Shown here: positions 4,596-56,640 of the stretch, in pieces
How the letters are laid out: the number at the start of each line of letters is the position of its first letter
How positions within the stretch are numbered: position 1 is the first letter of the stretch
Assembly (NCBI GenBank): GCA_965248755.1
Contig: OZ252149.1
Location: forward strand, 768,001 to 832,000
DNA from: Candidatus Latescibacterota bacterium
GTDB taxonomy: Bacteria; Latescibacterota; CBDEFO01
Direction of reading: 5' to 3'
Length of the DNA: 64,000 bases
The notes under the pieces: generated by a model
Seen by the model: the letters and a program-made list of their open reading frames with translations, nothing else
Databases searched by the model: none
What the model was told of the DNA's origin: nothing
Made by a program: the position numbers and the translations under genes

Positions 4596-4663
4596 ATCGA
4601 GCCACATGAGAGTTCTGATCTCTCAATAGATTCAAACGGGAAGATCGAAAGGTAGAGACTGCA

Positions 4664-5506
4664 ATGGCATCAACACGACTCACCGACCAGCAGATGGCTT
4701 TCTTCGACACGTTCGGCTTCCTGTACTTTCCCGCGCTGCTGGCTGACTGCATCAAAAATATAATCAGCGAGTTCGAGGCCATCTGGACAGCTCACGGCGG
4801 CGGGCACCACGGCAAAGACCACGACGGCGTGAGTCGCTCCTGCATCCTCCCGTTCCCCGATCAAAGCGAGTACCTAAGCTCTCTCCTGGATGACCCGCGC
4901 ATCCACGACATCGCTGCCAGTATCTGCTGCGACGACTTCAATTACACAAGCGGCGACGGCAACTTCTACGCCAGTGACACGAATTGGCACTCCGACGGCT
5001 ACAGCGGAGAGCGGATACTGAGCATCAAGATCGCTTTCTACCTCGACCAGCTGACGCGCGACACCGGAGCCCTGCGTGTGATCCCCGGCAGCCACCGCTG
5101 CGGCGACGCCTATGCCGATGCCATTGACCGCGACATCCGGGAAGGCGAGCAAGTCTGGGGGCTTCACGGCAGAGAAGTCCCGGCCCTGGTCCTGGAGACA
5201 ACACCCGGCGACATAGTAGTCTTCAACCACAACCTCAAGCACGCCGCCTTCGGCGGGTCAGTGCGCAGACGGATGTTCACGATGAACTTCTCCCGCCGCT
5301 ATCCCGACGATAGACTCGAGGAGTTGCGCGCCGTGCTGGGCAAAGAGGCGCGATTCTGGATCGATCGCATCCACGGCGAAGCGATGATCCGCACCGCAGG
5401 GGCAGAGCGGATGGTACACCTTGAGCAGGTGATGGCCAATGACACTCACCTTGCCGAGCTGACCCGGCAGCTCAAAGCGAAAATGAAAGAACCATCGCGC
5501 GGCTAA
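4664..5506 (+). CDS. PhyH-family Fe(II)/2OG dioxygenase
   Basis: FFDTFGFL, WHSD...H facial triad, GALRVIPGSH. Confidence 0.85.
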   Translation: MASTRLTDQQMAFFDTFGFLYFPALLADCIKNIISEFEAIWTAHGGGHHGKDHDGVSRSCILPFPDQSEYLSSLLDDPRIHDIAASICCDDFNYTSGDGNFYASDTNWHSDGYSGERILSIKIAFYLDQLTRDTGALRVIPGSHRCGDAYADAIDRDIREGEQVWGLHGREVPALVLETTPGDIVVFNHNLKHAAFGGSVRRRMFTMNFSRRYPDDRLEELRAVLGKEARFWIDRIHGEAMIRTAGAERMVHLEQVMANDTHLAELTRQLKAKMKEPSRG

Positions 5507-5621
5507 CGAAGTTAGCTCTTAATTGAACAGCATACAGGGGGGCGAGATCCCTTCTACTGTCTACGACTATATCCCGATTGAACCTCCGATTATTTCGGAG
5601 ATTGGGGAAAGGAAATGCGAC

Positions 5622-6668
5622 ATGGCACGTTTCAAAGTAGCGTTAGTCGCACTGGATGAACAGTTGTCACATGATGAAGCCTTGCCACCTGATTGGATAG
5701 CTGAGAGTCTGGCAAAAGCAGGCATTGACTTCATTGTTAGGGAATGTACCACACAGGAGGAACTGGCACAGCATGCCGGTGATGCGGATGTGGTGTGGGT
5801 GTTCGGCGGCAGGCCGGTGGTTACGGCCGAGAGCCTGAAGGTCATTCCGCGCTGCGGGGCAATCATCCGAACTGGCAGTGGTACGGACAACATACCGGTA
5901 GACGAGGCGACTCAGTTGGGTATCGTCGTCGCTAATACCCCGGAAGGGGTCAGCGATGAGGTGTCTGATCACGCCATCGGCTTGTTGTTGGCTGTCGTAC
6001 GGCAGATTGCTGTTCAAGATCGCGCGCTGCGCAGCGGTAAATGGGATTTCACGCTGGGCCGGCCACGCTGGCACATACGTGGACAGACATTAGGATTGAT
6101 CGGCTTCGGACACATCGCGCGTACCGTTGTGCGAAAAGTGAGTGGGTTCGACATGACGATCCTGGCGTATGACCCATATGTGAACGCCGAGACGATGGCA
6201 AAAGAGGGAGTACGCCCTGCGGGACTCGACGACGTGCTGTCCCAATCTGATTTTGTGTCGGTTCACTGTCCGCTCGTGAAAGATACGTATCACCTGATCG
6301 GCGAGCGCGAATTGGGGCTGATGAAGTCCACATCAATCTTGATCAACACATCGCGCGGCTCGGTTATTGACGAGCCCGCATTGGTCTCTGCACTGACCGA
6401 AGGTTCGATCGCGGCGGCTGGGCTGGATGTGTTTGAGCAAGAGCCACCAGATCCAGCCAACCCGCTGTTCAAACTCGACAACGTTGTGGTTACACCCCAT
6501 ATAGCAGGCTGGTCAGATCAACACATGGAAGCCTTCTGGCGCTTATCTTATGAGACCGTGATAGCACTGGCGTCAGGCCATTGGCCGCGCTCTTGTGTCA
6601 ACCCCCAATTGAAACTATCGGGGGTCAACTTAAAGGTGAAGCCGCGTTGGAACCTGACCCCCGATTGA
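5622..6668 (+). CDS. D-2-hydroxyacid dehydrogenase (phosphoglycerate dehydrogenase/CtBP-like)
   Basis: GLIGFGHIA, INTSRG, LDVFEQEP, TPHIAG; ATG 5622 follows AAGGA. Confidence 0.9.
   Translation: MARFKVALVALDEQLSHDEALPPDWIAESLAKAGIDFIVRECTTQEELAQHAGDADVVWVFGGRPVVTAESLKVIPRCGAIIRTGSGTDNIPVDEATQLGIVVANTPEGVSDEVSDHAIGLLLAVVRQIAVQDRALRSGKWDFTLGRPRWHIRGQTLGLIGFGHIARTVVRKVSGFDMTILAYDPYVNAETMAKEGVRPAGLDDVLSQSDFVSVHCPLVKDTYHLIGERELGLMKSTSILINTSRGSVIDEPALVSALTEGSIAAAGLDVFEQEPPDPANPLFKLDNVVVTPHIAGWSDQHMEAFWRLSYETVIALASGHWPRSCVNPQLKLSGVNLKVKPRWNLTPD
6603..6623. repeat. 21-nt palindromic dispersed repeat, in-frame copy
   Basis: CCCCAATTGAAACTATCGGGG flanked on both sides by GTCAAC. Confidence 0.85.
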
Positions 6669-6756
6669 ATCTATCGGGGGAGATCGGGGGCCATTGTCTG
6701 CTGGAGATCAGGGGAATTGCATTTCACATCAAGCCGAACCATAGGGAGGTCATACG

Positions 6757-7833: not shown

Positions 7834-7844
7834 GTACAGATTAT

Positions 7845-7919
7845 GGCTAGCGCTTAGGGCTACCGCTTACGGCTACTGCTTACGGCTACTGCTTACGGCT
7901 ACCGCTTAGGGCTAGCGCG
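7845..7919 (+). repeat. 13-bp tandem repeat, about 5.8 copies, GGCTA(C/G)(C/T)GCTTA(C/G)
   Basis: Units start at 7845, 7858, 7871, 7884, 7897 and 7910 (partial). Confidence 0.9.
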
Positions 7920-8098
7920 GAACGGCGTTTGGTTCGATGCTGCAACATTAAATGGAAGGGCCACTTTGCGGCTGGGCCAAAGCTTGCAGGTACCCAGGAA
8001 CACTTTCCGCAGTATTAATTTCCAGACAACGACCCGACCCTCGATCCAGTCGGGGGTTCAATCGGGGAGTGCCGAGGAGCACTTCAGTTTGATGTGCA

Positions 8099-8166
8099 GG
8101 GCTTAAACCCTCCTTGGGCTTAAACCTTTCTTGGGCTTAAACCTTTCTTGGGCTTAAACCTTCCTT
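8099..8166 (+). repeat. 17-bp tandem repeat x4, GGGCTTAAACC(T/C)T(T/C)CTT
   Basis: Units start at 8099, 8116, 8133 and 8150. Confidence 0.95.
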
Positions 8167-8182
8167 GCACATGGGTGAACCT

Positions 8183-13056: not shown

Positions 13057-13061
13057 AAGAA

Positions 13062-13139
13062 TGGTCGGGGTGGGCGGATTTGAACCGCCGACCTCCTGCT
13101 CCCGAAGCAGGCACGCTAACCGGACTGCGCTACACCCCG
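13062..13139 (-). tRNA. tRNA-Pro (anticodon CGG) with encoded CCA
   Basis: Reverse complement reads CGGGGTGTAGCGCAG...CCTGC-TTCGGGA-GCAGG...GGTTCAAATCC...CACCCCGACCA. Confidence 0.97.
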
Positions 13140-13287: not shown

Positions 13288-14652
13288 CTGGATGATTCAG
13301 AGGCAAAGGTAAATGAAAGTGCTGTAGTAGGTGACGCCGCCAGATCTAAAGTGCCCCTTTCCCGGAGGCTCGGTTTCTGGAACAATTGCTTTGTCCTGTG
13401 GGGATTTGTTCTGGTCCTATCCAGCTTCCTTGTGGGAGGGATGGTGGGAAAGGTCTTTCCCCTGAAGATGTCCATGCCGATCATATTCTTCGGCACACTC
13501 AGCAACGCCATCGTGGGCATCCTCGTAGGGGCTGCAGCATCCAGGACCGGATATTCCAGTGCTCTTTTATTCCGATACACCTACGGCAGAAAAGGAGTTA
13601 TACTCCCCAATGTCCTTATGGGGCTGACCAACATGGGCTGGTTTGCCGTCATCCTCAACATCACGAGGGACGGCTTTGTGCAAGAGGCCGGAGCAGAGGT
13701 CGGCTCGGCCCTGTGGCTCATCTGCACGATCGTAATCGGAACTCTTTTCATCCTCCCTGCTGCTATGCGCATCCGCTGGATAGCGTACATTAACTGGTTT
13801 GCAGTCCCCGGTTTTCTGGTTATATTTGTAGTGGTGCTCGCAATCACGATTAAAACCGCGGGGAGCTTCCCCTCGCTGTGGGACAAATGGTACGATCCGG
13901 CCAAGCCCGTCTTTATAGGTTTTGACATGGCCGCAGGGGGCTGGATCGTAGGCGCTACGATCATAGCAGATCTCGCCAGGTTCTGGAAGAACGCCAAACA
14001 GGCCGTTGTGGGCATAATGACCGCTTACGTGGGACTCGTGACCGTGCAGTACTGGGGCGGAGCCATCGGTGCTGCGCATACGGGGGAATATAACATATTC
14101 CTCATAGCGAGTTCACTGGGGCTGGGATTCTTGGCATGGCTGGCACTGTGGTTAGGGGCGCAATCCACTATGCAGGGCGGTACATACGCAGCAGGTCTGG
14201 CCTTCTCCGCACCGCCCATACCTATGATCAAAGGGCAGGAGTTTACAAGGAGGATCGCCACCATCGGCGTGGGAGCGGTGGGCTTCATCGGCAGCTTTGT
14301 AGGCCTGGACAAATACTTCATGTGGTGGGTTCAGTTCCTCGCCTGGGTGGTCGGTCCGATAGCTATAACTGTCATCCTCGACTACTGGGCGTTCCCACAA
14401 AACAGAGAGAGGTACGAACGAGCAGATGGGGCGGATATGAACTTGAACCCTGCTGCGTTCCTTGCGTGGATTGTCGGATTCTGTGTGGGATTCTACATAG
14501 GCGCAAACGAGATATTCAGCGGTCTTTTGAGTTCTATGGTAGCAGCGGGACTTGTGTACTACGTCTGGATGCGCTACGCCCTTGCCAAAGGCACCACACC
14601 TGAGGCACAGGTGTTCAGAACCAATCCTCGACCCCCGATCTATCCACAATAG
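13288..14652 (+). CDS. NCS1/cytosine permease family transporter (CTG start proposed; first GTG at 13351)
   Basis: About 12 hydrophobic segments; RYTYGRKG, GWFAV, ADLARF, DYW; AAGGAG at 13274-13279. Confidence 0.8.
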   Translation: MDDSEAKVNESAVVGDAARSKVPLSRRLGFWNNCFVLWGFVLVLSSFLVGGMVGKVFPLKMSMPIIFFGTLSNAIVGILVGAAASRTGYSSALLFRYTYGRKGVILPNVLMGLTNMGWFAVILNITRDGFVQEAGAEVGSALWLICTIVIGTLFILPAAMRIRWIAYINWFAVPGFLVIFVVVLAITIKTAGSFPSLWDKWYDPAKPVFIGFDMAAGGWIVGATIIADLARFWKNAKQAVVGIMTAYVGLVTVQYWGGAIGAAHTGEYNIFLIASSLGLGFLAWLALWLGAQSTMQGGTYAAGLAFSAPPIPMIKGQEFTRRIATIGVGAVGFIGSFVGLDKYFMWWVQFLAWVVGPIAITVILDYWAFPQNRERYERADGADMNLNPAAFLAWIVGFCVGFYIGANEIFSGLLSSMVAAGLVYYVWMRYALAKGTTPEAQVFRTNPRPPIYPQ

Positions 14653-14695
14653 ATTCAATCGGGAGGGTTCAATCGGGGATGAAAAGGAGATAAAG

Positions 14696-14839: not shown

Positions 14840-14845
14840 GGTATC

Positions 14846-23109: not shown

Positions 23110-23246
23110 GTAGCAGGAAAAACCTGGAGATGATTTTGGAAATCCGAAATAGTGGATAGCATACCGACACGGGAGTTGGTGCCCTCTCTACCCCGACCCC
23201 CAATAGATTCGATTGGGGGCTACTGTACAATAGAAAGAGGTGTTGT

Positions 23247-24659: not shown

Positions 24660-25229
24660 TATTAAACTCCTAAGTTCGTCTGAGCCATAGCCGAACGTAA
24701 TGACGCCACGTGGAGTCACTGCCATCGGCTTGACTCACGATAGGCACTCCGCGGGTGTGGCTTCAAATCCTGCCCTTAGCGGATAGGAACAGACCCCTTA
24801 GAACCGTAGAATAGCGGCGGATCGCGTTCCTCAACCGCTTACGAATGGCGGTATGCTGACGCAATCCCTACAAAGCGGGAAGCCCTCACCGCTTCGATTC
24901 TTCAGGATCGGGCTTTTATAAAGCAACCTAAGATGTAAGACCTGACGAGGCTCTTCCGTGGAGCGCTGGACAGGCTTCTCCCTATGGGCCATGGTCTGGT
25001 CCATAGGGTTATGTGCGTAGTCTTACAAGAATACGGCAACGTGCGCTGTATAGTCTGGCAAGGCTGGAACAGGAACAAGCTGCGATTGAATCCCCAATTG
25101 TTTCTATTGGGGATCGGGAATCAACACAAGATACTCTTATCTAAAGAGTTTGGCAAGAAAAATCCCTTGCATGGGATACAGAAGAATGAGTTTTCGTAAA
25201 ATCCTTATAAAATTGAGCCTCATAACCCC

Positions 25230-42840: not shown

Positions 42841-42908
42841 AGTCAGTTCCCCTCTTTCTCAAGCGCTAGGGCATGGTTTAAAGACCGCACCTTTTCCCCA
42901 AAACAATA

Positions 42909-43430: not shown

Positions 43431-43524
43431 TATTCACCTTTCTCTTGTCCCCCGAAACATTCTTCCCCGATAGAATCAACCGGGGATGGCGAGCGTCGCC
43501 TGCGACCTTTTTGGGGGCCATTCT

Positions 43525-43875
43525 CTATGCCTCGATGTCTATCGCCTTCCCCTTATCAGATTCGGGGCCTTGTGAACTCGAAGGCTCGTTATTCTGTTCT
43601 TCATCTTCTGAGTCTTGGGGCTCATCTTTGTGCTGATGTTCTTCCGATAATAGGAGTTCGTCTTTGTCTTGGTGCTTTTTCTTATCTTTGTCTATCTGGG
43701 ATTCCTGAGACTTGGAACTCCGAACCGTTTTTCTCCGATTTGCCTCGGCGTTTTCTTGAAGCTGTGCCGCAAATTTCTTCTGGTCTACGTCCGGCTGTTG
43801 CCTTTGCGCATCGAGCATCCTTTCCACGATCTGGGTCTTGGATAGGGTGTTCTGAATATCCACTGAATCGGCCAT
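43525..43875 (-). CDS. Hypothetical low-complexity protein ending KGKAIDIEA
   Basis: 116-aa ORF with AAGGTGG RBS. Confidence 0.6.
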   Translation of the reverse strand: MADSVDIQNTLSKTQIVERMLDAQRQQPDVDQKKFAAQLQENAEANRRKTVRSSKSQESQIDKDKKKHQDKDELLLSEEHQHKDEPQDSEDEEQNNEPSSSQGPESDKGKAIDIEA

Positions 43876-44029
43876 CTGACGATCACCACCTTACGAAGAA
43901 ACAGGACAAAGGACACCTATTTGTCCTTACATCTGTCACCCAAAAGTTCCCCGACACCCTTGCTGTCTGATATTCAAGGCATCTTTGAGCTCTACGATGT
44001 CTCCTTATTGTGGAAGGTCAAAGTCTAAT

Positions 44030-44791: not shown

Positions 44792-44820
44792 GCAACAAAC
44801 CTCTTAAGACTAACAAATTA

Positions 44821-44836
44821 AGCAAACGATTGGCCA
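44821..44836 (-). promoter_or_regulatory. Sigma54 -24/-12 promoter upstream of fliA
   Basis: TGGCCA-ATCGT-TTGCT on the minus strand. Confidence 0.6.
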
Positions 44837-44842
44837 GGATTT

Positions 44843-45103
44843 CTAAGTTACCCGTTGTTCAGCTTGCTTTTCCTCCTGAACGTCTTCACCCTCCTTAGAA
44901 TCCTCATCGGTAAGCTCAGCTTTTTCGACCGGATGCAGCAATTTAGGGGACAGAGTCTTTAATATCAGGATCCATGCAACCGCCCCCAGAGAGACGACAA
45001 GGGATCTGAATAGAGCCGCTTCCAGCGAATTTCCCATAGCCACTCCCAGAAGGGTCACGCCGCAGAAGATAAGGAGCGATAGATTTAGAGCAGTATTCTT
45101 CAT
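44843..45103 (-). CDS. Small two-TM hypothetical protein
   Basis: Two hydrophobic segments and an acidic tail; AAGGA RBS. Confidence 0.6.
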   Translation of the reverse strand: MKNTALNLSLLIFCGVTLLGVAMGNSLEAALFRSLVVSLGAVAWILILKTLSPKLLHPVEKAELTDEDSKEGEDVQEEKQAEQRVT

Positions 45104-45208
45104 TTTCGGTTCTTTTCCTTTTTGCACTATGTGGCAATATACCTCATCAGCGTTTGGACATTCTCCCCGAGGTAGGACGCCGACTCCGTAGGGCCTTTCT
45201 ACTATTGT

Positions 45209-46081
45209 CTACTGTCCAGGTGGAACGTCCATCGCGATCGGGACTTCCAAAGATTTTTTTGCGGTAAGAATATCCGATTCAGGCGTCAGGAGTCTTGCTG
45301 CAACGCGTTTTACATTTTGGGATGCCTGTGAGCTCGGCTTCGATATGAGGAAAGGCTCTCTTTGGGCGACGGCTTGGGATACGCTTTCATCCTCGGGGAT
45401 AAAGCCCAAGTACCCTATGCGTCTTTCGAGGAACCGTTCCACGACGAGCTGCATCTTCTCAAAGGTGTCCTCCGCTTCATCCTCCGAGCTTGCGCGGTTG
45501 ATCAAAAGCTTTATGTCCATATCACGATATCCGCTTATTATGAGTTTAATCATAGCGTAAGTATCGGAAGCCGTAGTAGGCTCTGGCGTCGTTATGAGTA
45601 TGACTTCTTTACAGCTTAGGACAAAGTCCATAACGTTCGTAGAAAGGCCGGGCGCTGTGTCTATTAGCACGAAATTGAATGCTTTCTCCAAAAGGGACAG
45701 CTGCTTTAAGACCTGCTGTCTTGAAATCTCAGCCGATTTTGGTATGGCTGTTCCACCGGAGAGAATTTTGGTGCCGGAGGGGCCGTCAAAAACGGCTTTT
45801 TGTATGTCCACATCGCCCAATATTACGTCTGCTGCTGTGTACTGTGGGTCAATACCTGCAAGTATATCCACATTAGATAGCCCCATATCTGCGTCAAAGA
45901 TCAGGACATCGTGATCCAGACCCGAGAGCGCTATAGCCAAGTTAAGGGCAAAATTCGTCTTGCCGACACCCCCCTTGCCACTCGTGATCGCTATTGCCCT
46001 TGCGGGGGTGACGTTGGAAGCTCGAGCACCCTCCGGGCGTCCATTGTCAGGTCTTTTGAATTTGTTGATGTGGTTGGGCAT
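45209..46081 (-). CDS. flhG: MinD/ParA-family ATPase FlhG
   Basis: SGKGGVGKT, DADMGL.N, TPEPT; follows flhF. Confidence 0.9.
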   Translation of the reverse strand: MPNHINKFKRPDNGRPEGARASNVTPARAIAITSGKGGVGKTNFALNLAIALSGLDHDVLIFDADMGLSNVDILAGIDPQYTAADVILGDVDIQKAVFDGPSGTKILSGGTAIPKSAEISRQQVLKQLSLLEKAFNFVLIDTAPGLSTNVMDFVLSCKEVILITTPEPTTASDTYAMIKLIISGYRDMDIKLLINRASSEDEAEDTFEKMQLVVERFLERRIGYLGFIPEDESVSQAVAQREPFLISKPSSQASQNVKRVAARLLTPESDILTAKKSLEVPIAMDVPPGQ

Positions 46082-46087
46082 ATCTAT

Positions 46088-47344
46088 CTATTTCATAATT
46101 AGTTCTGCCAGCTGGACAGGATCTGCTCTTTGTATTTCACCTGTGATGCTGGGTTCAGAAATCGTGTAAGAAAGAGGTTTTTTGACTCCGTCTATCAAAT
46201 TGAGTATCGTACCTGGATTTTCTGTCTCATAAAGCCGAGTCAGAAGAATTCTGTCGACCCCAAGGGGTTTAAATTTCTGGAAAAAGGCGAGGGAATCTTC
46301 CGGTTTGTCCGAGGCGCTCAAGACAAGATGCACCTCGTGAGGATCTATCTTCTGTACGAATCCTGCCAGTTCATCAAGAAGTTCTGAGGAGTTTTTGCTG
46401 ACTCCGGGAGTATCTATGAGAACGAGATCTTTATCTTTGAATCGCTCCAGTGCCCCTTCCATTTCAAAAGGAGAATAGACAGCGCTTGCTGGCACATTTA
46501 TAATCTTTGCCAGTCCTTCTATCTGTCCGAGGGCTCCGGCTCGGTAGGTATCGGCCGAGACGATAGCTATGTCTTTTGCTTTGTCAGTCTTATATTGAAT
46601 CGCCAATTTGGACAGAGCTGTGGTCTTTCCTGAACCGTTGGGTCCCACAAATAGTATCTTCATGCCCGTCTTTTGGAGGAAATTGGGAATTTTGATCATC
46701 TCTTTTGTCCGCTCAAGGACAGCTCCTCTGACAGATGAAGCGTCCCAGGGCTGTTCCTCCAGGTCTTTTTTCACTTTTCTAAGTAAGCTCCTTACAATCT
46801 TCTCATCTACGCCGTTTTTGAGCAATCCAGAAAAGATGTGTGCTGCGTCCGAGCCGTCCGAAAGGCGCGATACATCTGCATATTTGATCTGATGCGAAAT
46901 ATCTTCGATGGATTCTGAGATAGTCTCAATCTGCGCGGCAAATTGCTCCCGCAAGATTTTCGTTTCACTCTGAAGGACAGATCTTATGTCCTTCTCTACA
47001 GATGATTCACCGTTTGACTCGTTGTCGTAGGCCTCCGATAGCTTTGATCTAAAGGCAGACCCAGATGATACATCTTTTTGGAAGCCTGCAGGCTCACGAG
47101 CTCGCCTTTCGGTTTGGATAGGTTCTTTATCGGCAAGGGCAGCGGTGACCTCTATCTGCTCATTTTTTCCCCAGAATGCTCTTTTCATACTCTTTGAAGT
47201 CCCTCTTCCGTTGCCTCCCGAGCTAGACCTGCCCTGAGACGATACCTTTCTAGTCTTGAGGATAACTGCATCCTGTCCCAGGTCGGCTTTGACCTTAGAT
47301 AGAGCTTCATCCATCGTGGGGGCTGTGTATCTTTCAACTTTCAT
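46088..47344 (-). CDS. flhF: SRP-family GTPase FlhF (divergent)
   Basis: N-terminal VKADLGQDAVIL, GPNGSGKTT, DTYR, DTPG. Confidence 0.88.
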   Translation of the reverse strand: MKVERYTAPTMDEALSKVKADLGQDAVILKTRKVSSQGRSSSGGNGRGTSKSMKRAFWGKNEQIEVTAALADKEPIQTERRAREPAGFQKDVSSGSAFRSKLSEAYDNESNGESSVEKDIRSVLQSETKILREQFAAQIETISESIEDISHQIKYADVSRLSDGSDAAHIFSGLLKNGVDEKIVRSLLRKVKKDLEEQPWDASSVRGAVLERTKEMIKIPNFLQKTGMKILFVGPNGSGKTTALSKLAIQYKTDKAKDIAIVSADTYRAGALGQIEGLAKIINVPASAVYSPFEMEGALERFKDKDLVLIDTPGVSKNSSELLDELAGFVQKIDPHEVHLVLSASDKPEDSLAFFQKFKPLGVDRILLTRLYETENPGTILNLIDGVKKPLSYTISEPSITGEIQRADPVQLAELIMK

Positions 47345-49433
47345 CGGGTATTCCTATCTGGCCGGATATTCCTACTGTGCCTATGGATTCTAATTCGACG
47401 TCCTGTGGAATTTCGCTGTAGCTTATGACCGTCAGATGGGGGAACGCAGCTTCAACTAATTGTCTGAAATGGTATCTTACCGTCGGCGAGCAGACTACAA
47501 CGGGCTGTCTTCCCACAGCTGTTATCTCTTCTATTCTCCTTGCAAGATCAGCATAAATCTCCCTCACTACCTCGGGCGGGAGGCTAAAAGAGCTCTTTGT
47601 GGCATCAGCTTCTCTTATCCCGTCAGCTATGATCTGTTCCACCTGCTGGCTCAGAATAATGGATACTATCTTCCCCTCCTCGTCCTGGAGTTGACCTGAG
47701 ATGGTATGAGAGAGTGTGTTTCTGACGTATTCGGTCAAGATAGCTATATCTTTGGTCATAGGGGCGTAGTCGGCAAGGGTCTCCAGGATAGCGACCAGGT
47801 CTCTTATGGGTACGCCTTCTCTTAAGAGATTCAGAAGGACTTTGTGTATAGATCCGACTGTAGAGACATCAGGTATAAGCTCCTCCACGACCGTGGGATA
47901 TTCTTCCTTTACGTTTTCTATTAACTTTTGGACATCGTGTCTTGTAAGTATCTTGTGCGCTCTGTTTTTTAGGACCTCCATAAGGTGAGCAGCAAGCACC
48001 GCGGGCGCCTCTACAACCGTGTATCCGGCGATTTCCGCTCTTTCCTTTTGGGCCGCTGTGATCCAAAGAGCAGGCGTCCCAAAGGCGGGCTCTGTTGTCT
48101 CTATTCCTTCTATCTCTTCCTCAGCTGTTCCGGGGTTCATAGCCAAATAGTTACCCCTCATAATCTCGCTCCTTGCAACATCTATGCCTCGTAGCTTTAT
48201 GACATATTCGTTGGATTTGAGTTGTATATTGTCTCTGATCCTTATGGGAGGAACGATTATGCCTAATTGGAGGGCGACCTGTTTTCTTATTATTGTTATC
48301 CGGTCCAAGAGGTCCCCGCCCTGTGAGGCGTCCACTAACTTTATGAGTCCATAGCCTATCTCTAATTCTACGGGATCGACTTTTAAATATTCCTCTATTC
48401 TTTCCTCTTCTTTTGGGACCTCTTCAGCGGCTTCAAGTTCTTCCATCTCCAGGGCCATTGGACTGACTTTAGTCGACATGTAAGCTATAGCCCCAGTTAC
48501 TGCCGAAAGGAAGAAGAAGGGAACGGTGGGAAGACCGGGCGTCACCCCTAGCATAAAAAGGACGCTGGAGGCTATATATATGGCTTTCGGCTGGAGAAGT
48601 ATCTGTCTGGTGACGTCCTGTCCCAGATTAGATTCGGAGGCGGCACGGGTGACTATGATTCCGGCTGCTGTAGATATTATAATGGCCGGTATCTGGGCCA
48701 CAAGCCCGTCGCCTACTGTTAGAATGCTGTAGGTCTGTGCAGCCTGTCCAAAACTCATTCCCATCTGTACTACACCGATTATGAGTCCTCCGATGATGTT
48801 TATGATGGTTATTATAAGTCCGGCTATCGCATCTCCCCTGACGAACTTGCTGGCTCCGTCCATAGCTCCGTAAAAGTCGGCCTCTCTTGCTATCTTTTCT
48901 CTTCTATCCCTTGCCTGGACATCGTCGATAAGCCCGGCGTTCAGGTCTGCATCTATACTCATCTGCTTGCCGGGCATAGCATCCAGCGTGAACCGTGCGG
49001 CAACCTCGGCTATCCTGCTTGAACCTTTTGTTATGACCACAAATTGAATTATGACCAGGATCAGAAATATGACAAATCCGACTACGTAGTTACCCCCAAC
49101 CACGAACGTCCCGAAAGATGAGATAACGTCGCCAGCGTAGGACTCTCCTAAGATAAGCCTGGTGGAGGCGATATTTAAGGAGAGCCTGAACAGAGTCACC
49201 AGAAGGAGTAGTCCAGGGAAAACGGAGAATTGCAGCGGTTCTGTGGTGTAAACTGCGACCATCAGTATGATCAGGGCGAACGTGATATTTAAGGCTAAAA
49301 GCACATCCAGTATGGGCGTGGGGAGAGGGACAATTATTATGGCCAGTATGGCTATGACGCCGGCTGCCAAAAATACGTCGCTGTGCTTGGTGATCGCACT
49401 CAATGAGAGGTTTGTACCTGAAGTTAGTGCCAT
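47334..49433 (-). CDS. flhA: Flagellar export protein FlhA
   Basis: EVAARFTLDAMPGKQMSIDADL, FYGAMDGASKFVRGD. Confidence 0.98.
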   Translation of the reverse strand: MALTSGTNLSLSAITKHSDVFLAAGVIAILAIIIVPLPTPILDVLLALNITFALIILMVAVYTTEPLQFSVFPGLLLLVTLFRLSLNIASTRLILGESYAGDVISSFGTFVVGGNYVVGFVIFLILVIIQFVVITKGSSRIAEVAARFTLDAMPGKQMSIDADLNAGLIDDVQARDRREKIAREADFYGAMDGASKFVRGDAIAGLIITIINIIGGLIIGVVQMGMSFGQAAQTYSILTVGDGLVAQIPAIIISTAAGIIVTRAASESNLGQDVTRQILLQPKAIYIASSVLFMLGVTPGLPTVPFFFLSAVTGAIAYMSTKVSPMALEMEELEAAEEVPKEEERIEEYLKVDPVELEIGYGLIKLVDASQGGDLLDRITIIRKQVALQLGIIVPPIRIRDNIQLKSNEYVIKLRGIDVARSEIMRGNYLAMNPGTAEEEIEGIETTEPAFGTPALWITAAQKERAEIAGYTVVEAPAVLAAHLMEVLKNRAHKILTRHDVQKLIENVKEEYPTVVEELIPDVSTVGSIHKVLLNLLREGVPIRDLVAILETLADYAPMTKDIAILTEYVRNTLSHTISGQLQDEEGKIVSIILSQQVEQIIADGIREADATKSSFSLPPEVVREIYADLARRIEEITAVGRQPVVVCSPTVRYHFRQLVEAAFPHLTVISYSEIPQDVELESIGTVGISGQIGIPDES

Positions 49434-49479
49434 TTTACTTTCTTTATCGTTGATTTAGGTGGTTAATCCAGAACTTTTA

Positions 49480-50547
49480 TCAGACTACTACACCCTTAAG
49501 TCTGTATATGTAGGCCAGGACCCCGGCTACTGCCCTGTAGAGATCTTCGGGTATCTGCATCCCGACTTCGGTAGAGTCGTAAAGTGCTCTGGCCAGAGGT
49601 TTATCCTCTACTATGGGGATTCCGTGTTCGTCAGCTATATCCTTGATCTTCTGGGCTATTAGTCTCTGTCCTTTGGCGATGACAGTAGGCGCCGCCATGG
49701 TCTCTTGGGCGTACTTGAGCGCGACGGCTATGTGAGTTGGATTTGTGATGACAAGGTCCGAATCTGGGATCTGCTCCATCATCCTTTTCTGCGCCATCTC
49801 CCTTTGGATGCTCTTGACTCTGGCTTTGATTTCGGGGTCGCCTTCGTATTGCTTGCGCTCCTCTTTTGTCTCCTGTTTGGTCATCATCAGCTGCTTGTCG
49901 TACTGCCATTTGGTGTAGGCGTAGTCAAGAATGGCTAATATTATAAGAGCGACCGCACACCTTATGGCGATTTTAAACGACGATTTGAGAATAAATGTTA
50001 ATATCTGTCCGACATCCATGTCAATAAGATAAATGGTATCCTTCATATCAGAACTCAAAGCGGTGTAAGCTACGATTGCGACGATAGATATCTTGAGGAG
50101 TCCTTTGACAAGCTCTACGAGGGATTGTTTAGATACCAGTTTCTTTATCCCAGAAAAAGGGTTGATCTTGTTCCCCTTGGGCTTGATAGTCTCCAACGTG
50201 AAGAGAACGCCGATCTGCATATAGTTGGATGCAAGCCCGACAGCCATAATCGCCAAAGCGACAGGCCCCACGGCCCTTGCGATGAATCCCAGTACAAACG
50301 GGAACAGATTGTTGACATTCTGATGTGTCAAATTGATGCTGTGCATATTCACGAAGGCAAAGTTAGCAAGTGTCTCTATATTGCTGAAGATGGCCTCTCC
50401 TGCAAAATGAAGGGCTATTATTCCGGTCAAAAGGACCAAACTGCTATTAAGATCGGTACTCTTGGCTACGTTTCCCTTTTCTCTTGCCTCCCCCTTTTTT
50501 TTGGGAGTAGCCTGTTCTGTTTTTTCCTGTACTGGGTCTTCTGGCAC
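49480..50547 (-). CDS. flhB: Flagellar export protein FlhB
   Basis: KTEQAT, EGDP, NPTH autocleavage motif. Confidence 0.97.
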   Translation of the reverse strand: MPEDPVQEKTEQATPKKKGEAREKGNVAKSTDLNSSLVLLTGIIALHFAGEAIFSNIETLANFAFVNMHSINLTHQNVNNLFPFVLGFIARAVGPVALAIMAVGLASNYMQIGVLFTLETIKPKGNKINPFSGIKKLVSKQSLVELVKGLLKISIVAIVAYTALSSDMKDTIYLIDMDVGQILTFILKSSFKIAIRCAVALIILAILDYAYTKWQYDKQLMMTKQETKEERKQYEGDPEIKARVKSIQREMAQKRMMEQIPDSDLVITNPTHIAVALKYAQETMAAPTVIAKGQRLIAQKIKDIADEHGIPIVEDKPLARALYDSTEVGMQIPEDLYRAVAGVLAYIYRLKGVVV

Positions 50548-50682
50548 TGTCTTTGTCCTTATTAAACTTAAACTGCTATCTTAAGACTTCAGTTTTCCCC
50601 AAAAGGTTCTTTGCCCACTTTTCAGCTTGCCGTCACCCCAGCAGCCACACGGCCCTTGGGGGCATCCCTTTCCAAAATAGTG

Positions 50683-51462
50683 TTACAGGAGCTTGAGTAT
50701 CTGTGTGATGTCTCCTTCTGCTCTTATCCAGAACTTATGGAACATATGGACGAAGAACGACAGAGAAAATCCTATAGCTAAGAGCCCGACTCCTATCTTT
50801 AGAGGAAATCCGACGATGAATACGTTCATCGAGGGAAATGACCTTGCGACAACTGCCATAGCGATCTGAACCATAAAAAGGGCCGCTATGACCGGGGCTC
50901 CGATCTTGATAGCTATTACGAAGACCTGCGCCGACATTCTGATTAACTTGTCGGCGAAGGCTCCAGAAAGTGACAAAGTGGACACAGGGATCGTCACAAA
51001 ACTTGCTCCTATAGCATCTATAAGGAAGTGGTGTCCATCTATTATCAGGAATATCAAGATAGCAAACAGGGCTTTGAGCTCTGCTATAATGGAGATCTGA
51101 GACCCCGATTGGGGATCAATAACGTTGACTATTCCAAAGCCCATCTGCATCCCTATAATCCCTCCTGCGATCTGCACTGCTGAGAAAAGGAGGGTGGTGG
51201 CAAATCCAATAATAACTCCTATGACTGCTTCTTTGGATATCATAATCATAAGTGACATAATGTCGGTGGCTTGTGGAACTTGGGAGCTGTAGGCCACGGG
51301 AAAGATAATCAGGCTCAAAAGAGCTGCAAGTCCGATTTTAACTTTAGCTGGGACGCTGTTGTGTCCCAGGATAGGAACCAAGCCTACGATAGCTAGTATC
51401 CTTATAAATATTAGTATGAACTGTTCAAACTGCGGTAGAGTGATGTTCATCGGCTGGGCCAT
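50683..51462 (-). CDS. fliR: Flagellar export protein FliR
   Basis: QMGFG, DGHH, PSMNVFIVGFPLK. Confidence 0.95.
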   Translation of the reverse strand: MAQPMNITLPQFEQFILIFIRILAIVGLVPILGHNSVPAKVKIGLAALLSLIIFPVAYSSQVPQATDIMSLMIMISKEAVIGVIIGFATTLLFSAVQIAGGIIGMQMGFGIVNVIDPQSGSQISIIAELKALFAILIFLIIDGHHFLIDAIGASFVTIPVSTLSLSGAFADKLIRMSAQVFVIAIKIGAPVIAALFMVQIAMAVVARSFPSMNVFIVGFPLKIGVGLLAIGFSLSFFVHMFHKFWIRAEGDITQILKLL

Positions 51463-51540
51463 AGTATCTAAATACAGTAGACAACGGGACAGCAGTTATC
51501 AGAAAAGTCAGCGCCACCCACGCTTGTATGCTTTCTACTT

Positions 51541-51801
51541 TCATTTGGGGAGAATAGAAAAGATCAATCTGGTGAAATCCGTTAGTTTAGTAAGCATCCA
51601 CGGCATAAATAGGACCAGCGTTATAAGTACCGCCAGGATCTTCGGTATAAACGTTAGCGTCATTTCGTGTATCTGTGTTACTGCCTGAAAGATGCCCACA
51701 GTCAGGCCAACAATAAGTCCCGCCAAAAGAGCTGGAGCAGCTACCATCAAAGCTGTAAAGACAGCTTCTTTTCCGATGTGTATGACAAACTGTTCAGTCA
51801 T
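51541..51801 (-). CDS. fliQ: Flagellar export protein FliQ
   Basis: FQAVTQIHEMTLTFIPK. Confidence 0.97.
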   Translation of the reverse strand: MTEQFVIHIGKEAVFTALMVAAPALLAGLIVGLTVGIFQAVTQIHEMTLTFIPKILAVLITLVLFMPWMLTKLTDFTRLIFSILPK

Positions 51802-51847
51802 TGTCCTGTTTTATTGAAAAAGAGGGAAAGTAGTGACCATTTGGCGT

Positions 51848-52624
51848 TTACCTGAACCCGCCCATAAGCGAATCGATAAGGAGATACCATCCGTCCACAA
51901 GCACGAACATGAGTATTTTAAAGGGTAGAGAGATCATTATGGGGGGAAGCATAAGCATTCCCATAGACATCAATAAGCTTGCGACTATCATGTCCAAAAC
52001 TATGAAGGGCAGATAGAGCAAGAAACCTATCTGAAAGGAGATCCTGAGTTCACTTATGACAAACGCAGGTATAATAATTCTGGCGGGGATCTCATCGCTG
52101 TTTTTCGGCTTTTCCATCTTGGCCAGGTGCACAAAAAGAGCAAGGTCCTTTTCCCTTGTATGTTTCAACATGAAGTTTCTGATAGGGCCCATTCCCACCG
52201 CCATAGCTTCGCTTTGAGATATTTCTTCGTTCAGATAGGGCTGAAGCGCCTCTGTGTTAACCTGGTCCCATACAGGAGCCATTATGAACAGAGTCAAAAA
52301 GAGTGCAATTCCAATAAGTAGTTGATTAGGTGGCATCTGCTGCGTGCCCATGGCGTGTCTTAAGAATGAGAAGACTACTATAATCCTGGTAAATGCAGTC
52401 ATCATAATGAGTATGGAGGGAGCAAGCGATAGGATCGTCAAAAGAAATATTATCTGAAGCGATACCGAGATATTAGCGGGCGCTGTGGCCTTGTCGATGT
52501 CAAAAGGGAACCCTTGAGCGCTAGAGATTGCAGGCCACATAGCGGACAATGTCAGCCAAGTCAATACAAATAGACTCAAGAGTCCTATGAACTTGAATCT
52601 TGTATGAGCCTTAGTATCTTTCAT
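51848..52624 (-). CDS. fliP: Flagellar export protein FliP
   Basis: FTRIIVV, GTQQMPPNQ, PAFVISEL, LPFKILMFVLVDGW. Confidence 0.96.
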   Translation of the reverse strand: MKDTKAHTRFKFIGLLSLFVLTWLTLSAMWPAISSAQGFPFDIDKATAPANISVSLQIIFLLTILSLAPSILIMMTAFTRIIVVFSFLRHAMGTQQMPPNQLLIGIALFLTLFIMAPVWDQVNTEALQPYLNEEISQSEAMAVGMGPIRNFMLKHTREKDLALFVHLAKMEKPKNSDEIPARIIIPAFVISELRISFQIGFLLYLPFIVLDMIVASLLMSMGMLMLPPIMISLPFKILMFVLVDGWYLLIDSLMGGFR

Positions 52625-52658
52625 TAATCTTGATTTCCTTATAGATGCAAAAGTATAT

Positions 52659-53711
52659 TCAAAGACTACCAAGAGAATTTTCCAGCTTATTTGATGAACT
52701 TACAAGGCTCGTAATCCTCACGCCGAAGTTTTCATCTACAATTACGACCTCCCCTTCTGCAAATTTCCTATCGTTCACCAGCAGGTCTACCGGTTCACCG
52801 GCAAGTTTATCCAGTTCTACCACATAGCCTGTTCCCAGCGTAAGAAATTCTCTGACGAGCATCCTCTTCCTGCCGAGTTCTATCGATACTGTAAGAGGCA
52901 GATCTATGATGACATCTATATTCGCGTCGTCACCTGAAACAGCGTCGGGAGCAAGTTGTTCAAATTGAGCTCTTCTGACTACTACAGGCTCTGTCTCTTT
53001 TTCTTCTTTTGTGACCGGTGCATCTTGTTGCTCTTTCCTTACATCGGCCATCTCCTCATCAGGCAGTTGGACGGTAGCTTCATCCATCTTCAAATCGATG
53101 GTCTCTTCATCGGTCGGTTGGACAGCGGCTTCATCCGTCTGGCTTGGGTTCCAACCTTCTAGTAGGCCGTAGCAGCCTTCCTTGCTGATCAACTTTATCA
53201 CAAAGTCATTGGGCGTATCTTTGATTTTGAGGGAAAGATCGATGGATACAAAGTCGGATATCTCTATTCCAAGATTCTCCGAATCTACAAGTTTTGCCTG
53301 GGACGGGAGGAACTCTATTTTTTCCTTTAACTGGCTGGAGATGCCTGTGGATGCGGCTCCCATTATCTGATCTGTTGCCTCCTGAATAGGGCCAAGATGT
53401 TCTTCGGAAAATTCAGCGCTTCCATCTCCCGACGTCATAAAACCAGCGATCTTAGCGGTGGTATCCTTCTGTAAGAGGAACACGATCTTTCCCTCCGTCC
53501 CACCCTTAAAATCGAGTCCCACCACCACACACCCATCGGCGTAGTCCACCTCTATCTCGGCGGGACTTGCCTGGCCTATCTTTTCTATAGTTATCTTGGC
53601 TTCTCTGGACGAGAGCGTCGACAGAGCCTCAGCGGCGTACTCTGAAAAGACCTTTTCGATATCAAATAGATCGTCTTTTTGGCTGTCATTCAACAGTTCT
53701 TCGTCGGCCAT
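52659..53711 (-). CDS. fliN: Motor switch protein FliY-like (CheC-like domain + FliN)
   Basis: C-terminal IELG..LDKLAGEPVD..GEVVIVDENFGVRIT; N-terminal CheC-like helices. Confidence 0.88.
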   Translation of the reverse strand: MADEELLNDSQKDDLFDIEKVFSEYAAEALSTLSSREAKITIEKIGQASPAEIEVDYADGCVVVGLDFKGGTEGKIVFLLQKDTTAKIAGFMTSGDGSAEFSEEHLGPIQEATDQIMGAASTGISSQLKEKIEFLPSQAKLVDSENLGIEISDFVSIDLSLKIKDTPNDFVIKLISKEGCYGLLEGWNPSQTDEAAVQPTDEETIDLKMDEATVQLPDEEMADVRKEQQDAPVTKEEKETEPVVVRRAQFEQLAPDAVSGDDANIDVIIDLPLTVSIELGRKRMLVREFLTLGTGYVVELDKLAGEPVDLLVNDRKFAEGEVVIVDENFGVRITSLVSSSNKLENSLGSL

Positions 53712-53715
53712 TGTT

Positions 53716-54705
53716 CTACCTTTCCTCCGTGTCTTCTGATACTACTTTTGTAATCTTAACTGCTTTTTTCTTACCTACCAGCCCGGGATGTCCGCGGAAT
53801 TTCACCTGGTTGTCGATGGATACCTGTACTTCATCATTTACCCCCTGGTCGAGACGTACAACGTCGCCTATTTGGAGCTGTGAGATATTCTTTAGGGTCA
53901 TCTCTACGTCACCCAGTGATGCAACTACAGGGACTTTGGTCCTCATTAAGTTTTCTTCTACTAACTCTGAATCCCTTTTAGAATCCTTTTTCCTTTCTGT
54001 TACAGACATATGTTGAGCTCCGAGCGTAGGCATTATGTCCTCTACCAGGTATAATGGAATGCATACATTGAGGAAACTAGAAAAATTTCGCGTTTTGATC
54101 TCGAATGGAACTAATAAACAGGTTTCGCCCGGCGGAGCGATCTGAGCGAAATGGGGATTGGTCTCAAAGGTCCTAAATTCAAACTCGAAGTCAATCACAT
54201 TCTCCCAGGCTTTGGATAATTCCTCCATAGTTCTATCAGCGGTTCTTCTTAATACATTTCTCTCTATATCCGTGATTTCCCTTGCTTCTACCCCAACATC
54301 TCCGCTTCCCCCAAAGAGTCTGTCCACGACATAGAGAGCAAACTGAGGGCTGATTTCAAGCATAACATCCCCACCCAAATGTCTGGCGTTGTAGATGTAG
54401 ATGCAAGTGGGATCGGACATCGAGTTGCTAAAATCCGCAAACGGAAGCATATCCGCAGAGGTAATATTGACCTCTACGAAAACCCTTAGGCTGGAGGAAA
54501 GAAAGGTCTGCAAGGTCCCTGCAAAGCTCTTGTGTATTGCATCGAACGCCCGAATCTGTTCTTTGATCTTGCCGAATATCTGGGGATTCCTGAAGTCGTA
54601 CAGACTTGCTCTTTCTGTGAGCAAATCAGATTCGCCCTCGGCCACATCCGTGGGGGACATGGATTTCAAAAGAGCGTCCATATCGTTCTGTGATAGTTGG
54701 TCCAA
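53716..54705 (-). CDS. fliM: Motor switch protein FliM
   Basis: LSQNDMDALL, YDFRNP, DRLFGG, ETNP, GDVV; start uncertain (TTG 54705 or GTG 54738). Confidence 0.92.
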   Translation of the reverse strand: MDQLSQNDMDALLKSMSPTDVAEGESDLLTERASLYDFRNPQIFGKIKEQIRAFDAIHKSFAGTLQTFLSSSLRVFVEVNITSADMLPFADFSNSMSDPTCIYIYNARHLGGDVMLEISPQFALYVVDRLFGGSGDVGVEAREITDIERNVLRRTADRTMEELSKAWENVIDFEFEFRTFETNPHFAQIAPPGETCLLVPFEIKTRNFSSFLNVCIPLYLVEDIMPTLGAQHMSVTERKKDSKRDSELVEENLMRTKVPVVASLGDVEMTLKNISQLQIGDVVRLDQGVNDEVQVSIDNQVKFRGHPGLVGKKKAVKITKVVSEDTEER

Positions 54706-54754
54706 GTTTGCCGTCCTTTTTCCAAGAAAACTCTTCACACACTTTGTGGTAAGC

Positions 54755-54775
54755 CCCCGATTGAATCTATCGGGG
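54755..54775. repeat. 21-nt palindromic dispersed repeat, consensus copy
   Basis: CCCCGATTGAATCTATCGGGG, identical to 6659-6679. Confidence 0.9.
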
Positions 54776-54825
54776 GCTTGCTGCCACCAAAAGAAGGAGC
54801 CAGGCCACCGTTTTGGGCCCTGATC

Positions 54826-55296
54826 CTACTGGATCACAAATTTGCTAAAGTGTACTTTCTTAAGATCGCCTTTGGTAATCTTCTGGTTTACTTTAGTGAG
54901 CACTTCTTCCCTCAATTCTTCTTTATTACGAGTTCCCTCCAATTTATCCAGTGTCCTGCTGGAAAATATATCTATGAGGGTATCTTTCAATTCCATGTCT
55001 CTCTTCTTGAGCAGCTCTAAAGTACCTACCCTTCCCACTTCTAACCCGATAGTCACGGCAAGGTATCTTGTGCCCAAGGTTCCTGCGGGGTTAACTATTA
55101 CATCTTCGACGAGATATATTTCTCCGCTCCCTTCTTCAGTATCCTCATATTCTTCAGTTTCCTCAGTCTTGACAGAAGCCTCGCTGGGATCCTTCTCAGC
55201 CAAAAGTGCGGGAATTATGAAATAGGTGATAAGAAAATATGCTAGACCTATTTGCGCTACAACTATTAAAGCTATCAGGAGGTACTTCTTGCTCAT
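54826..55296 (-). CDS. fliL: Flagellar basal-body protein FliL
   Basis: N-terminal TM; IVNPAG..RYL; FSKFVIQ end. Confidence 0.9.
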   Translation of the reverse strand: MSKKYLLIALIVVAQIGLAYFLITYFIIPALLAEKDPSEASVKTEETEEYEDTEEGSGEIYLVEDVIVNPAGTLGTRYLAVTIGLEVGRVGTLELLKKRDMELKDTLIDIFSSRTLDKLEGTRNKEELREEVLTKVNQKITKGDLKKVHFSKFVIQ

Positions 55297-55371
55297 AATT
55301 CCTCCAAAGATGCCAGAATGTGTTCTGAAGCATCAAAACTCTTCTTCTAGATACAGCCATTCTAGTAGATG

Positions 55372-55387
55372 AGCAAAAAGAATGCCA
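55372..55387 (-). promoter_or_regulatory. Sigma54 -24/-12 promoter upstream of fliL
   Basis: TGGCAT-TCTTT-TTGCT on the minus strand. Confidence 0.75.
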
Positions 55388-55581
55388 CAGAACGAAAATT
55401 CTGGATATGTTGTATATCAGAATAATTATCAATGACTTACATAGGATTATCAATCAGGGAGAATCGGGTGTGTGGTCGTGACACTGTGCGATCTCGGAAA
55501 ACTTTTCCTCTTTACAGGCATACTGTCGAGATCAGTCAGCGTATCTATTGTCGATGTGAAGGAAGGGTAAAATGTTAGTCA

Positions 55582-56376
55582 CTATTCATTGTCTGCGTCC
55601 ATAGCTTGAAGGAATTCTGCAAAGGCGCTGTCAGGTTCTGTGCCGTGTAAGCCGGAGGGAACTATTTCTTCTTCACCTCTATATTTAACGAATATCTCTA
55701 CTCTTCTGTTTGAGCCTCGGCCCTTTGCCGAGTCGTTGGGTTTTATGGGTCTAAACTCGGCGTATCCGGAAGCCGAGAGCTTGGCGGGATCTAATCCTCC
55801 TTCGTCTACAAAGTATCTTATGACGGTGGAGGCTCTGGCGGTGGAGAGTTCCCAGTTAGAGGGGAATTGAGGTGTTTTGATAGGAAGGTCGTCTGTGTGA
55901 CCTTCGACACGAATGCTGGACCCCTCTCCCAGCTTGACTATATGTAGCAGCATAGGGATGATCTTGGGTTTTAAGTCGGCTTTCCCCAGATCGAAGAGGA
56001 CAGGATTGCTTATCCTTATAGCTATCTCATCCCCCTGGGCTTGGATATGAATTGAGTCTTCGAGCTTGTTTTCTTTAATGAACTGCTGCATCTCGTTCAG
56101 GGCAGATACAACGCGCCTTGGCTGAAAGCCGGTCAAGTCAGACTTATAGACTTCAGGATGTGCAATAACTGTAGGATCTGCAGTGAGGATTCCCAGCGCT
56201 CCCTGAAGCGATCCCATGGCTTTCTCAAACTTGACAATTTGGATGGAGGACATAGAGACAATAAGCACGAAGAAGGTCAAAAGGAGCGACATCAAGTCGC
56301 CGTATGTGACCATCCAGCTCGGGGCCCCCCCTCCCTCACTTTCCTCTTCTTTCTTGGCCTTCTTATTTCTTGCCAT
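55582..56376 (-). CDS. motB: Stator B subunit (MotB/PomB)
   Basis: WMVTYGDLMSLLLTFFVL; EGHTD, NWELSTARA, NRRVEI. Confidence 0.95.
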   Translation of the reverse strand: MARNKKAKKEEESEGGGAPSWMVTYGDLMSLLLTFFVLIVSMSSIQIVKFEKAMGSLQGALGILTADPTVIAHPEVYKSDLTGFQPRRVVSALNEMQQFIKENKLEDSIHIQAQGDEIAIRISNPVLFDLGKADLKPKIIPMLLHIVKLGEGSSIRVEGHTDDLPIKTPQFPSNWELSTARASTVIRYFVDEGGLDPAKLSASGYAEFRPIKPNDSAKGRGSNRRVEIFVKYRGEEEIVPSGLHGTEPDSAFAEFLQAMDADNE

Positions 56377-56390
56377 CTTCCTTTCCCTAA

Positions 56391-56640
56391 CCCGATTAAT
56401 TCATAAACTTGATCGAAGTCATTGCGAGGAGCAAAGCGGTCCCTGATTGAGTCTATCGGGGAAGCAATATCAAGGTTTTATAGTGGTCTCCTATGAGAGC
56501 CGGAGAGTATTACATCTACCACAGAATCGAGATTGCTTCGCCTTCGGCTCGCAAGGACACCGAAGGTGGTTAAAAGGCATAACTATAATATAATACAATC
56601 CCTTAATTAATACACGGCCTTTTTTTGTGAATTATTCGGG
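56391..56640. mobile_element. 250-bp non-coding MITE-like element between motA and motB
   Basis: TIRs CCCGATTAATTCAT / GTGAATTATTCGGG (12/14); CTAA direct repeats at 56387-56390 and 56641-56644. Confidence 0.7.

Follow-up and report, generated by a model that had tools for sequence, protein, structure and literature searches.

The 64-kb stretch of Latescibacterota DNA analyzed here (the window) lies in G000, a single-contig genome of 4.54 Mb (98% complete) that is populated by a palindromic hairpin of 23 nucleotides (nt). This hairpin is almost certainly real, recently active mobile DNA and is likely to be among the smallest mobile DNA elements. An earlier reading of the window from its letters alone (the sequence-only reading) had described a dispersed 21-nt palindrome and taken it for a spreading micro-element, a view that is upheld by empty orthologous and paralogous sites and by copies nested within one another; it overlooked the 23-nt boundary and a 4-nt replacement or duplication footprint. 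Genome-wide, 530 sites in G000 lie within 3 mismatches of the 21-mer, and the 19-nt core has 540 sites, compared with 1 to 3 for each of five shuffled cores. Collapsing copies inherited within larger repeats left a dereplicated set of 442, to which the counts of copy structure and flanks refer. Comparisons were made mainly with G001, a same-genus relative (~95% identical to G000, 4.6 Mb, 96% complete), and covered 2.8 of its 4.6 Mb.

The element unit reads Y-C-CCCGAT-T-GANTC-T-ATCGGG-G-R. The pair just outside the 21-mer covaries (T-A in 195 copies and C-G in 127; 324 Watson-Crick pairs against 196 expected) and the next pair further out does not (132 against 150 expected), which places the boundary of the unit at 23 rather than 21 nt. 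As DNA, the unit is predicted to fold at about -7 kcal/mol into a hairpin whose stem has 8 bp and whose loop has 7 nt; the centre base of the otherwise conserved loop is free to vary, and a T-T mismatch tells the strands apart. The compensatory stem changes first seen in the window recur across the genome (G-C in 388 copies, A-T in 16, G-T in 13, and A-C in 8), many of the A-T copies being members of one nested subfamily. A purine precedes 358 of the copies and a pyrimidine follows 332. A 27-nt subfamily carries a 5' CCTG or CTTG tail whose presence correlates with a variant at core position 6 (18 of 38 vs 27 of 404, p = 4e-10), and this tailed form is also present in foreign loci. The element was rightly said to lack the unpaired foot of classical repetitive extragenic palindromes (REPs), as GTCA stands beside only 2 of 442 copies and GTAG beside 24, the latter attributed to host heptamer arrays.

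Filled and empty homologous sites, which had been suggested as a check on mobility, were found between G000 and G001 as well as among paralogues. An empty homologue exists for 160 of the 470 copies with homologous flanks, and these collapse to 72 independent events. At single-copy orthologous sites, 27 of 167 G000 copies were empty in G001 and 37 of 180 G001 copies were empty in G000, with 25 and 24 sites, respectively, differing in other ways. Polymorphic copies were closer to the consensus than the others, with 46 of 64 against 123 of 234 showing at most one mismatch. Multicopy hosts show insertion to be the direction of change, as do self-nested copies. In an IS3-family element, the filled copies of sites with 58, 87, and 92 empty homologues are longer by 20, 19, and 20 nt, respectively, a fourth site with 79 empty homologues gains the tailed form (+27), and sites in a miniature inverted-repeat transposable element (MITE) with 30 and 59 empty homologues each gain 20 nt. 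Likewise, filled and empty paralogues of the MITE around the window copy at 56440 differ by 20 nt, and a single MITE site holds copies in both orientations that share one junction. Insertions within genes are filtered for frame: the length change is divisible by 3 in all seven in-gene events but in 27 of the 56 others (p = 0.013).

The footprint of these events is distinctive in that the hairpin usually replaces, and sometimes duplicates, a 4-nt YNNR target. Across the 72 events, net gains comprised 43 of 17 to 21 nt, 23 of 24 to 30 nt, none of 22 to 23 nt, and six outliers, with modal gains of exactly 19 nt (17 events) and 27 nt (15 events). Copies inserted into other copies provide a target of known sequence, and here 52 of 77 lose exactly 4 nt, compared with 0, 0, 0, 2, and 0 in shuffled-loop controls; 48 of the 52 losses hit one tetramer (element positions 12 to 15), in the same orientation 27 times and in the opposite orientation 21 times. 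Two nested composites carry their own 4-nt duplication. Of the 442 copies, 20 stand between exact direct duplications of 4 nt (shuffles, mean 3.0 and maximum 9), or 20 of 270 when the flanks are fixed at R and Y (mean 2.3, maximum 8), and all 20 are YNNR while none is YTAR. In 11 non-self +19 events, the replaced tetramers matched YCGR at 2.64 of 4 positions vs a background of 1.45 (p of about 1e-5), and the target tetramer was overwritten in 7 of the 11. No target bases are lost when the 27-nt form, which has a 5' (G)CYTG tail, inserts. Direct repeats of 3 nt flank 40 of 442 copies vs 11.7 expected, but these reflect at least in part a pre-existing 6- to 7-nt periodicity of the targets and so were not counted as duplications. 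An inverted target dinucleotide, an idea taken from one MITE site, was contradicted by other events.

Placement was assessed with our own crude gene calls on G000 (3,938 genes, 82% coding). The sequence-only reading had held that confinement to fixed promoter or terminator positions would speak against mobility, and the copies show no bias in orientation. The 540 copies comprise 422 that are intergenic, 92 inside genes, and 26 across gene ends; 152 are sense and 162 antisense to transcription, convergent gene pairs enclose 53 and divergent pairs 55, and distances to genes are broadly spread. A T-run follows the hairpin in only 2 of 442 copies on either strand, and the random orientation argues against the hairpin being a site for termination or regulation. 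The element does prefer other repeats, with another repeat motif beside 245 of 442 copies where 66 would be expected (115 against 20 for self-like motifs, 114 against 32 for CGTC-REP-like ones, and 69 against 12 for heptamer arrays), and the flanks of copies form more stable folds than random intergenic sequence does (mean -7.5 kcal/mol, n = 243, vs -6.1, n = 1,200). Neighboring copies show no modal spacing (44 of 529 within 300 bp), and no over-represented 4- or 6-nt palindrome of the HIP kind was found in G000. The insertions reshape the genome by interrupting transposase genes, adding 6 to 11 in-frame codons to genes, and providing stop codons. Other small repeats in G000 include a 24-nt GTCAGACA-type hairpin (30 strand-hits, also seen as indels), GTAG-type repeats (118), CGTC-type repeats (177), GTCTACT heptamer arrays (55), and 18-nt and 42-nt hairpin indels, each seen twice.

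Outside G000, the distribution of the element is patchy and crosses phyla. Within its own phylum, it is abundant in 2 of 168 genomes and present as one copy in a third, while the 23-mer occurs in 13 of 13 genomes (1 to 36 strand-hits each) from the order of a distant 'Deltaproteobacteria' metagenome-assembled genome (MAG) and the element in at least 120 metagenome loci of 36 to 69% G+C; no exact match was found in viral contigs. Of 65 distinct foreign junctions, 64 have T-A or C-G as the outer pair, and 4-nt duplications occur at 7 of the 65, about four of them independent. In one foreign locus (L336), a CGTC-footed hairpin is the exact 23-mer, and among the foreign loci an element variant also sits within a REP hairpin at +20. 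These loci suggest that the element originated as the stem-loop of a CGTC-type REP, or of the related Ssn-related motif (SRM), freed from its foot; alternatively, the REP may have been converted by the element. Several metagenome contigs hold copies in transposase genes, namely inside an open IS630 transposase frame (L240:1067-2152) and between the halves into which ISNCY and IS30 transposase matches are split (L255 and L262), and a perfect copy lies on a 3.5-kb contig labelled Nanoarchaeia (L217), which may be misbinned. In the literature consulted, which covered few subscription papers, neither the core sequence nor such intergenic palindromic repeats of Latescibacter were found.

We hypothesize, with a probability of roughly 0.45, that the 23-nt hairpin is moved as single-stranded DNA by a trans-acting, hairpin-recognizing nuclease that makes a 4-nt staggered cut, with host repair completing the insertion. 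Under this hypothesis, the gene-less hairpin would travel as single-stranded DNA, the nuclease would open an (R)YNNR(Y) target by cuts staggered by 4 nt, and host repair would then either trim the overhangs (23 - 4) or fill them (23 + 4), such that one staggered cut around YNNR could account for both footprint modes. Mobilization in trans by an enzyme, which the sequence-only reading had proposed, remains something that we infer. A small REP-associated nuclease, such as an Ssn-like GIY-YIG protein, may be the mover, although this is a first guess on slender grounds. A broader and more tentative version, which we would sooner doubt than accept, is an undescribed transposition pathway in which bare 23-nt hairpins, once shed by CGTC-type REPs, would be moved into a staggered cut of 4 nt whose resolution either deletes or duplicates the target; the sequence-specific enzyme would have crossed phyla with the element and would also be the mover of micro-elements resembling small dispersed repeats (SDRs) generally.

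Several observations weigh against a dedicated nuclease. No mover was found among the families searched, a set that did not include IS110, HNH, DUF559, Ku/LigD, Cas1, or a whole-proteome scan, and the motif-flanked nuclease or transposase gene anticipated by the sequence-only reading did not materialize, none being both intact and linked to the element in G000 and G001. Y1/RAYT genes (PF01797) are absent from both genomes, and the only GIY-YIG match in G000 lies in a 608-amino-acid (aa) frame that we take to be UvrC. Of an Ssn-like gene, G000 retains only short 5' stubs, four of them adjoining copies of IS1380 and another interrupted by tailed hairpins in tandem (G000:C1 near 3031450), and the intact 107-aa Ssn-like gene of G001 is flanked by ordinary CGTC hairpins and not by the element. 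In addition, none of 23 SRM-pattern matches in G000 overlaps a copy. SsnA is described, in the parts of PMC11893778 drawn on here, as cutting single-stranded DNA sequence-specifically beside such hairpins, which favors the hypothesis, but also as cutting outside the palindrome with a need for three bases upstream of it, a feature that the footless element lacks. The footprint is also imprecise, a gain of exactly +19 being seen in only 17 of the 43 events of +17 to +21; in our reading, the tailed form and not duplication makes up about half of the +27 class. The 38 nested copies that G000 has at the hot spot represent 16 sequence classes, and 23 of the copies belong to just four of these, so that many nested copies moved as composites and not as independent insertions. 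Furthermore, the single-copy differences between G000 and G001 cannot distinguish gain from loss without an outgroup, and copies show no replication-strand bias (261 vs 279, with the origin located by GC skew alone).

Broader searches for a mover gave similar results. Ssn and HUH motifs were not detected by regular-expression scans, and no nuclease-like candidate emerged from the paralogue families enriched beside copies or from 72 short genes flanked by repeats at either end (first 70 residues, inspected by eye). Open reading frames (ORFs) beside metagenome copies, of which 103 of 130 were compared with NCBIfam, belonged to diverse genes and a few transposases, with no recurrent mover. The four-helix-bundle family TIGR02436 (one broken copy in G000, none in G001) and GxxExxY (none in either genome) were considered and rejected; neither of these, nor reverse transcriptase (RT) or IS1380, tracks the distribution of the element. 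The Ssn-like gene of G001 belongs to a complete, ordinary SRM-ssn-SRM cassette at L355:1409-1790 (G001:C4), which, in our reading, lies between duplicated Sua5-like/antitoxin-like gene ends.

The strongest competing explanation, itself rather unlikely in our estimate, dispenses with a dedicated enzyme and invokes template switching or gene conversion by host replication or repair, guided by a 2- to 4-nt likeness of the target to the YC/GR ends of the element. The target tetramers do resemble the joined ends of the element, the junctions are imprecise and sometimes carry extra 5' bases, the MITE site filled in both orientations at one junction is what in-place replacement predicts, and no mover gene was found among the families searched. 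However, template switching does not readily explain why the element is nearly identical, letter for letter, across phyla and across contigs of 36 to 69% G+C, why its centre base is free when the loop around it is conserved, why one self site shows a fixed loss of 4 nt, or why gains of +22 to +23 are missing.

It is improbable that the element is a REP moved by a RAYT or IS200-IS605 tyrosine transposase that passed through the lineage. The imperfect hairpin with its strand-distinguishing T-T mismatch would suit such an enzyme, Y1 genes number 3 to 13 in each of four distant carrier genomes, and GTAG-type repeats are present in G000, yet both nearly complete genomes lack a Y1 gene despite turnover of the element since their split, and the copies have neither a foot nor a preferred doublet spacing. 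Y1 insertion is precise, whereas a gain of +23 was never observed. Still less probable is an RNA copy reverse-transcribed at a nicked target, with the position of the second nick setting the 4-nt deletion or duplication. Target-primed reverse transcription yields both target deletion and target duplication, and G000 has two RT matches; G001, however, has none despite an equal copy number and new insertions of its own, the match is missing from two of three distant carrier genomes, the nearest copy to either RT of G000 is 1 to 3 kb away, and the transcribed-strand bias expected of this route is absent.

A minimal derivative of a resident IS1380-family element, moved by its DDE transposase, is very improbable and is largely refuted by its target and distribution. 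The resident IS1380-family MITE, which duplicates YTAR targets and has CGTC-type REP-like arms in its interior, occurs in about 40 copies of 230, 250, or 270 bp, and its parent (G000:C1:2921195-2922841) is an intact-looking element of 1,647 bp with a 448-aa frame. By our own comparison, the 19-nt core resembles the termini of the MITE and its parent at its start and its end (10 of 12 and 9 of 12 bases), and IS1380 matches are abundant (52 in G000, 14 in G001). The duplications beside the hairpin nevertheless never match YTAR, which is found in 55 of 59 strand-hits for the MITE, and target loss predominates over duplication; moreover, all nine distant carrier MAGs lack an IS1380 match, and four element-free Latescibacterota genomes have IS1380. 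G000 is very IS-rich, with a second IS1380-family element in about 45 near-identical copies and an IS3-family element (window 18134-19400) whose 16-mers occur about 55 to 87 times. Finally, a fixed functional site arisen in place (a transcription factor operator, terminator, or uptake sequence), for which the palindromic form and mainly intergenic position might speak, is refuted as the origin of the element by block gains of 19 to 27 nt at filled and empty sites, transposase genes included, together with the scarcity of T-runs, the varied gene distances, and the lack of orientation bias or of any preference between convergent and divergent genes; single copies may have been co-opted secondarily.

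Within the window, the nine whole copies of the 21-nt palindrome that had been listed stand for the most part, those at 6603, 6659, 14644, 23198, 43465, 54755, and 56441 lying within 3 mismatches of the 21-mer (none in 100 shuffles); the other two are more decayed, 4621 matching the 19-nt core at 3 mismatches and 25092 differing from the 21-mer at 4 positions, and the unit is 23 rather than 21 nt. The four split copies were correctly recognized, each being an outer copy with an inner copy inserted. At 5573..5607 (plus strand) the outer copy is split at its positions 12 to 15 by a decayed inner copy (5583-5601), and at 8033..8067 (minus) it is likewise split by a decayed one (8038-8056). The pair at 14633..14678 (minus; inner copy 14643-14665) is 29 nt shorter in G001, and the pair at 25083..25119 (plus; inner copy 25091-25113) has received a further copy in G001 (+19 nt). 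A third difference between the genomes lies near 4590, where the G001 orthologue of a decayed copy (4584..4602, approximate bounds, strand unassigned) holds an extra inserted copy (+18 nt); three such differences between G000 and G001, near 4590, 14633, and 25092, fall within the window. The decayed copy at 4620..4642 (minus) and the copy with a compensatory A-T stem pair at 23197..23219 (minus) are common to both genomes.

The copy at 6602..6624 (plus), with a 4-nt direct duplication TCAA (6598-6601 and 6625-6628), keeps the reading frame of a gene for a 2-hydroxyacid dehydrogenase, close to its 3' end, and the perfect copy at 6658..6680 (plus) supplies the TGA stop of the same gene (6666-6668). 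The nested pair at 14633 similarly supplies the TAG stop (14650-14652) of a permease gene, so that both stop codons ascribed to the element do lie inside copies and end their ORFs. The remaining copies are intergenic at 43464..43486 (minus), perfect and between fliL and fliM at 54754..54776 (plus), and inside a MITE at 56440..56462 (plus; net +20 nt vs empty MITE copies). The host of the last is an IS1380-family MITE (56391..56640, plus; about 230 bp when empty) with a CTAA target duplication and CGTC-type REP-like arms. The copies at 43465, 54755, and 56441 have no collinear orthologue in the compared part of G001, and the copy at 8033 was not anchorable. For the flagellar cluster (window 42800-61000), no G001 match was found among the 40 of 420 candidates scored. 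The window also contains one tRNA gene (13065-13139, minus strand), the only Rfam family found there; 13-nt and 17-nt tandem arrays (7835-7925 and 8099-8166) that are short or absent in G001 and three other samples; and a 111-nt tandem repeat (61703-62368) inside a 999-aa FliK hook-length gene.

Among known systems, the CGTC REP, dRS3-NTS, and Ssn-related motif family shares an 8-bp stem with the hairpin (PMC3733652 and PMC11893778, in the parts consulted), and distant carrier loci hold CGTC-footed hairpins with the same or a nearly identical stem-loop. It differs from these REPs and SRMs in lacking the GTCA foot, in not overlapping SRM matches, and in having a 7-nt loop, occurring as singlets, and moving as a bare hairpin; the ssn gene of G001 is flanked by hairpins other than the element. 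REPINs resemble it in being short, palindromic, mainly extragenic, non-autonomous, and present in hundreds of copies, but the excerpted account in PMC3116915 makes the doublet their unit and regards singlets as immobile remnants, whereas here the singlet moves, no doublet spacing is preferred, and RAYT is absent from G000 and G001. Like MITEs derived from insertion sequences, the element is non-autonomous and has inverted ends and, in a minority of copies, 4-nt duplications; unlike them, it is ten times shorter, predominantly loses its target, and does not target YTAR. It differs from intrinsic terminators in its scarcity of T-runs on either strand and its even division between sense and antisense.

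The element works in the manner of the SDRs of Nostocaceae. These, reportedly described by Elhai et al. in 2008, are said to be 21 to 27 nt long, to nest in themselves, and to lie in heptamer arrays and mini-transposons. The 23-nt unit, the 27-nt tailed form, and the covarying hairpin fit that size range, and the element also nests in itself, in heptamer arrays, and in mini-transposons, with filled and empty sites, as SDRs reportedly do. The element differs in occurring in other phyla, SDRs being reportedly restricted to Nostocaceae, and in a genome that has no HIP-like palindrome. As far as the citing passages go, SDRs are likewise gene-less, very short, structured, and mobile-looking repeats with no known mover (PMC4390886, PMC5861425), and SDR5 inserts precisely within HIP1 (PMC4390886), whereas the present hairpin replaces or duplicates 4 nt. 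This hairpin family makes the way in which gene-less repeats of 20 to 30 nt spread testable, as its high copy number, dated filled and empty pairs, exact self-target, and -4/+4 footprint constrain any mechanism. If a sequence-specific enzyme does insert such short hairpins, it could provide a small DNA-writing tool.

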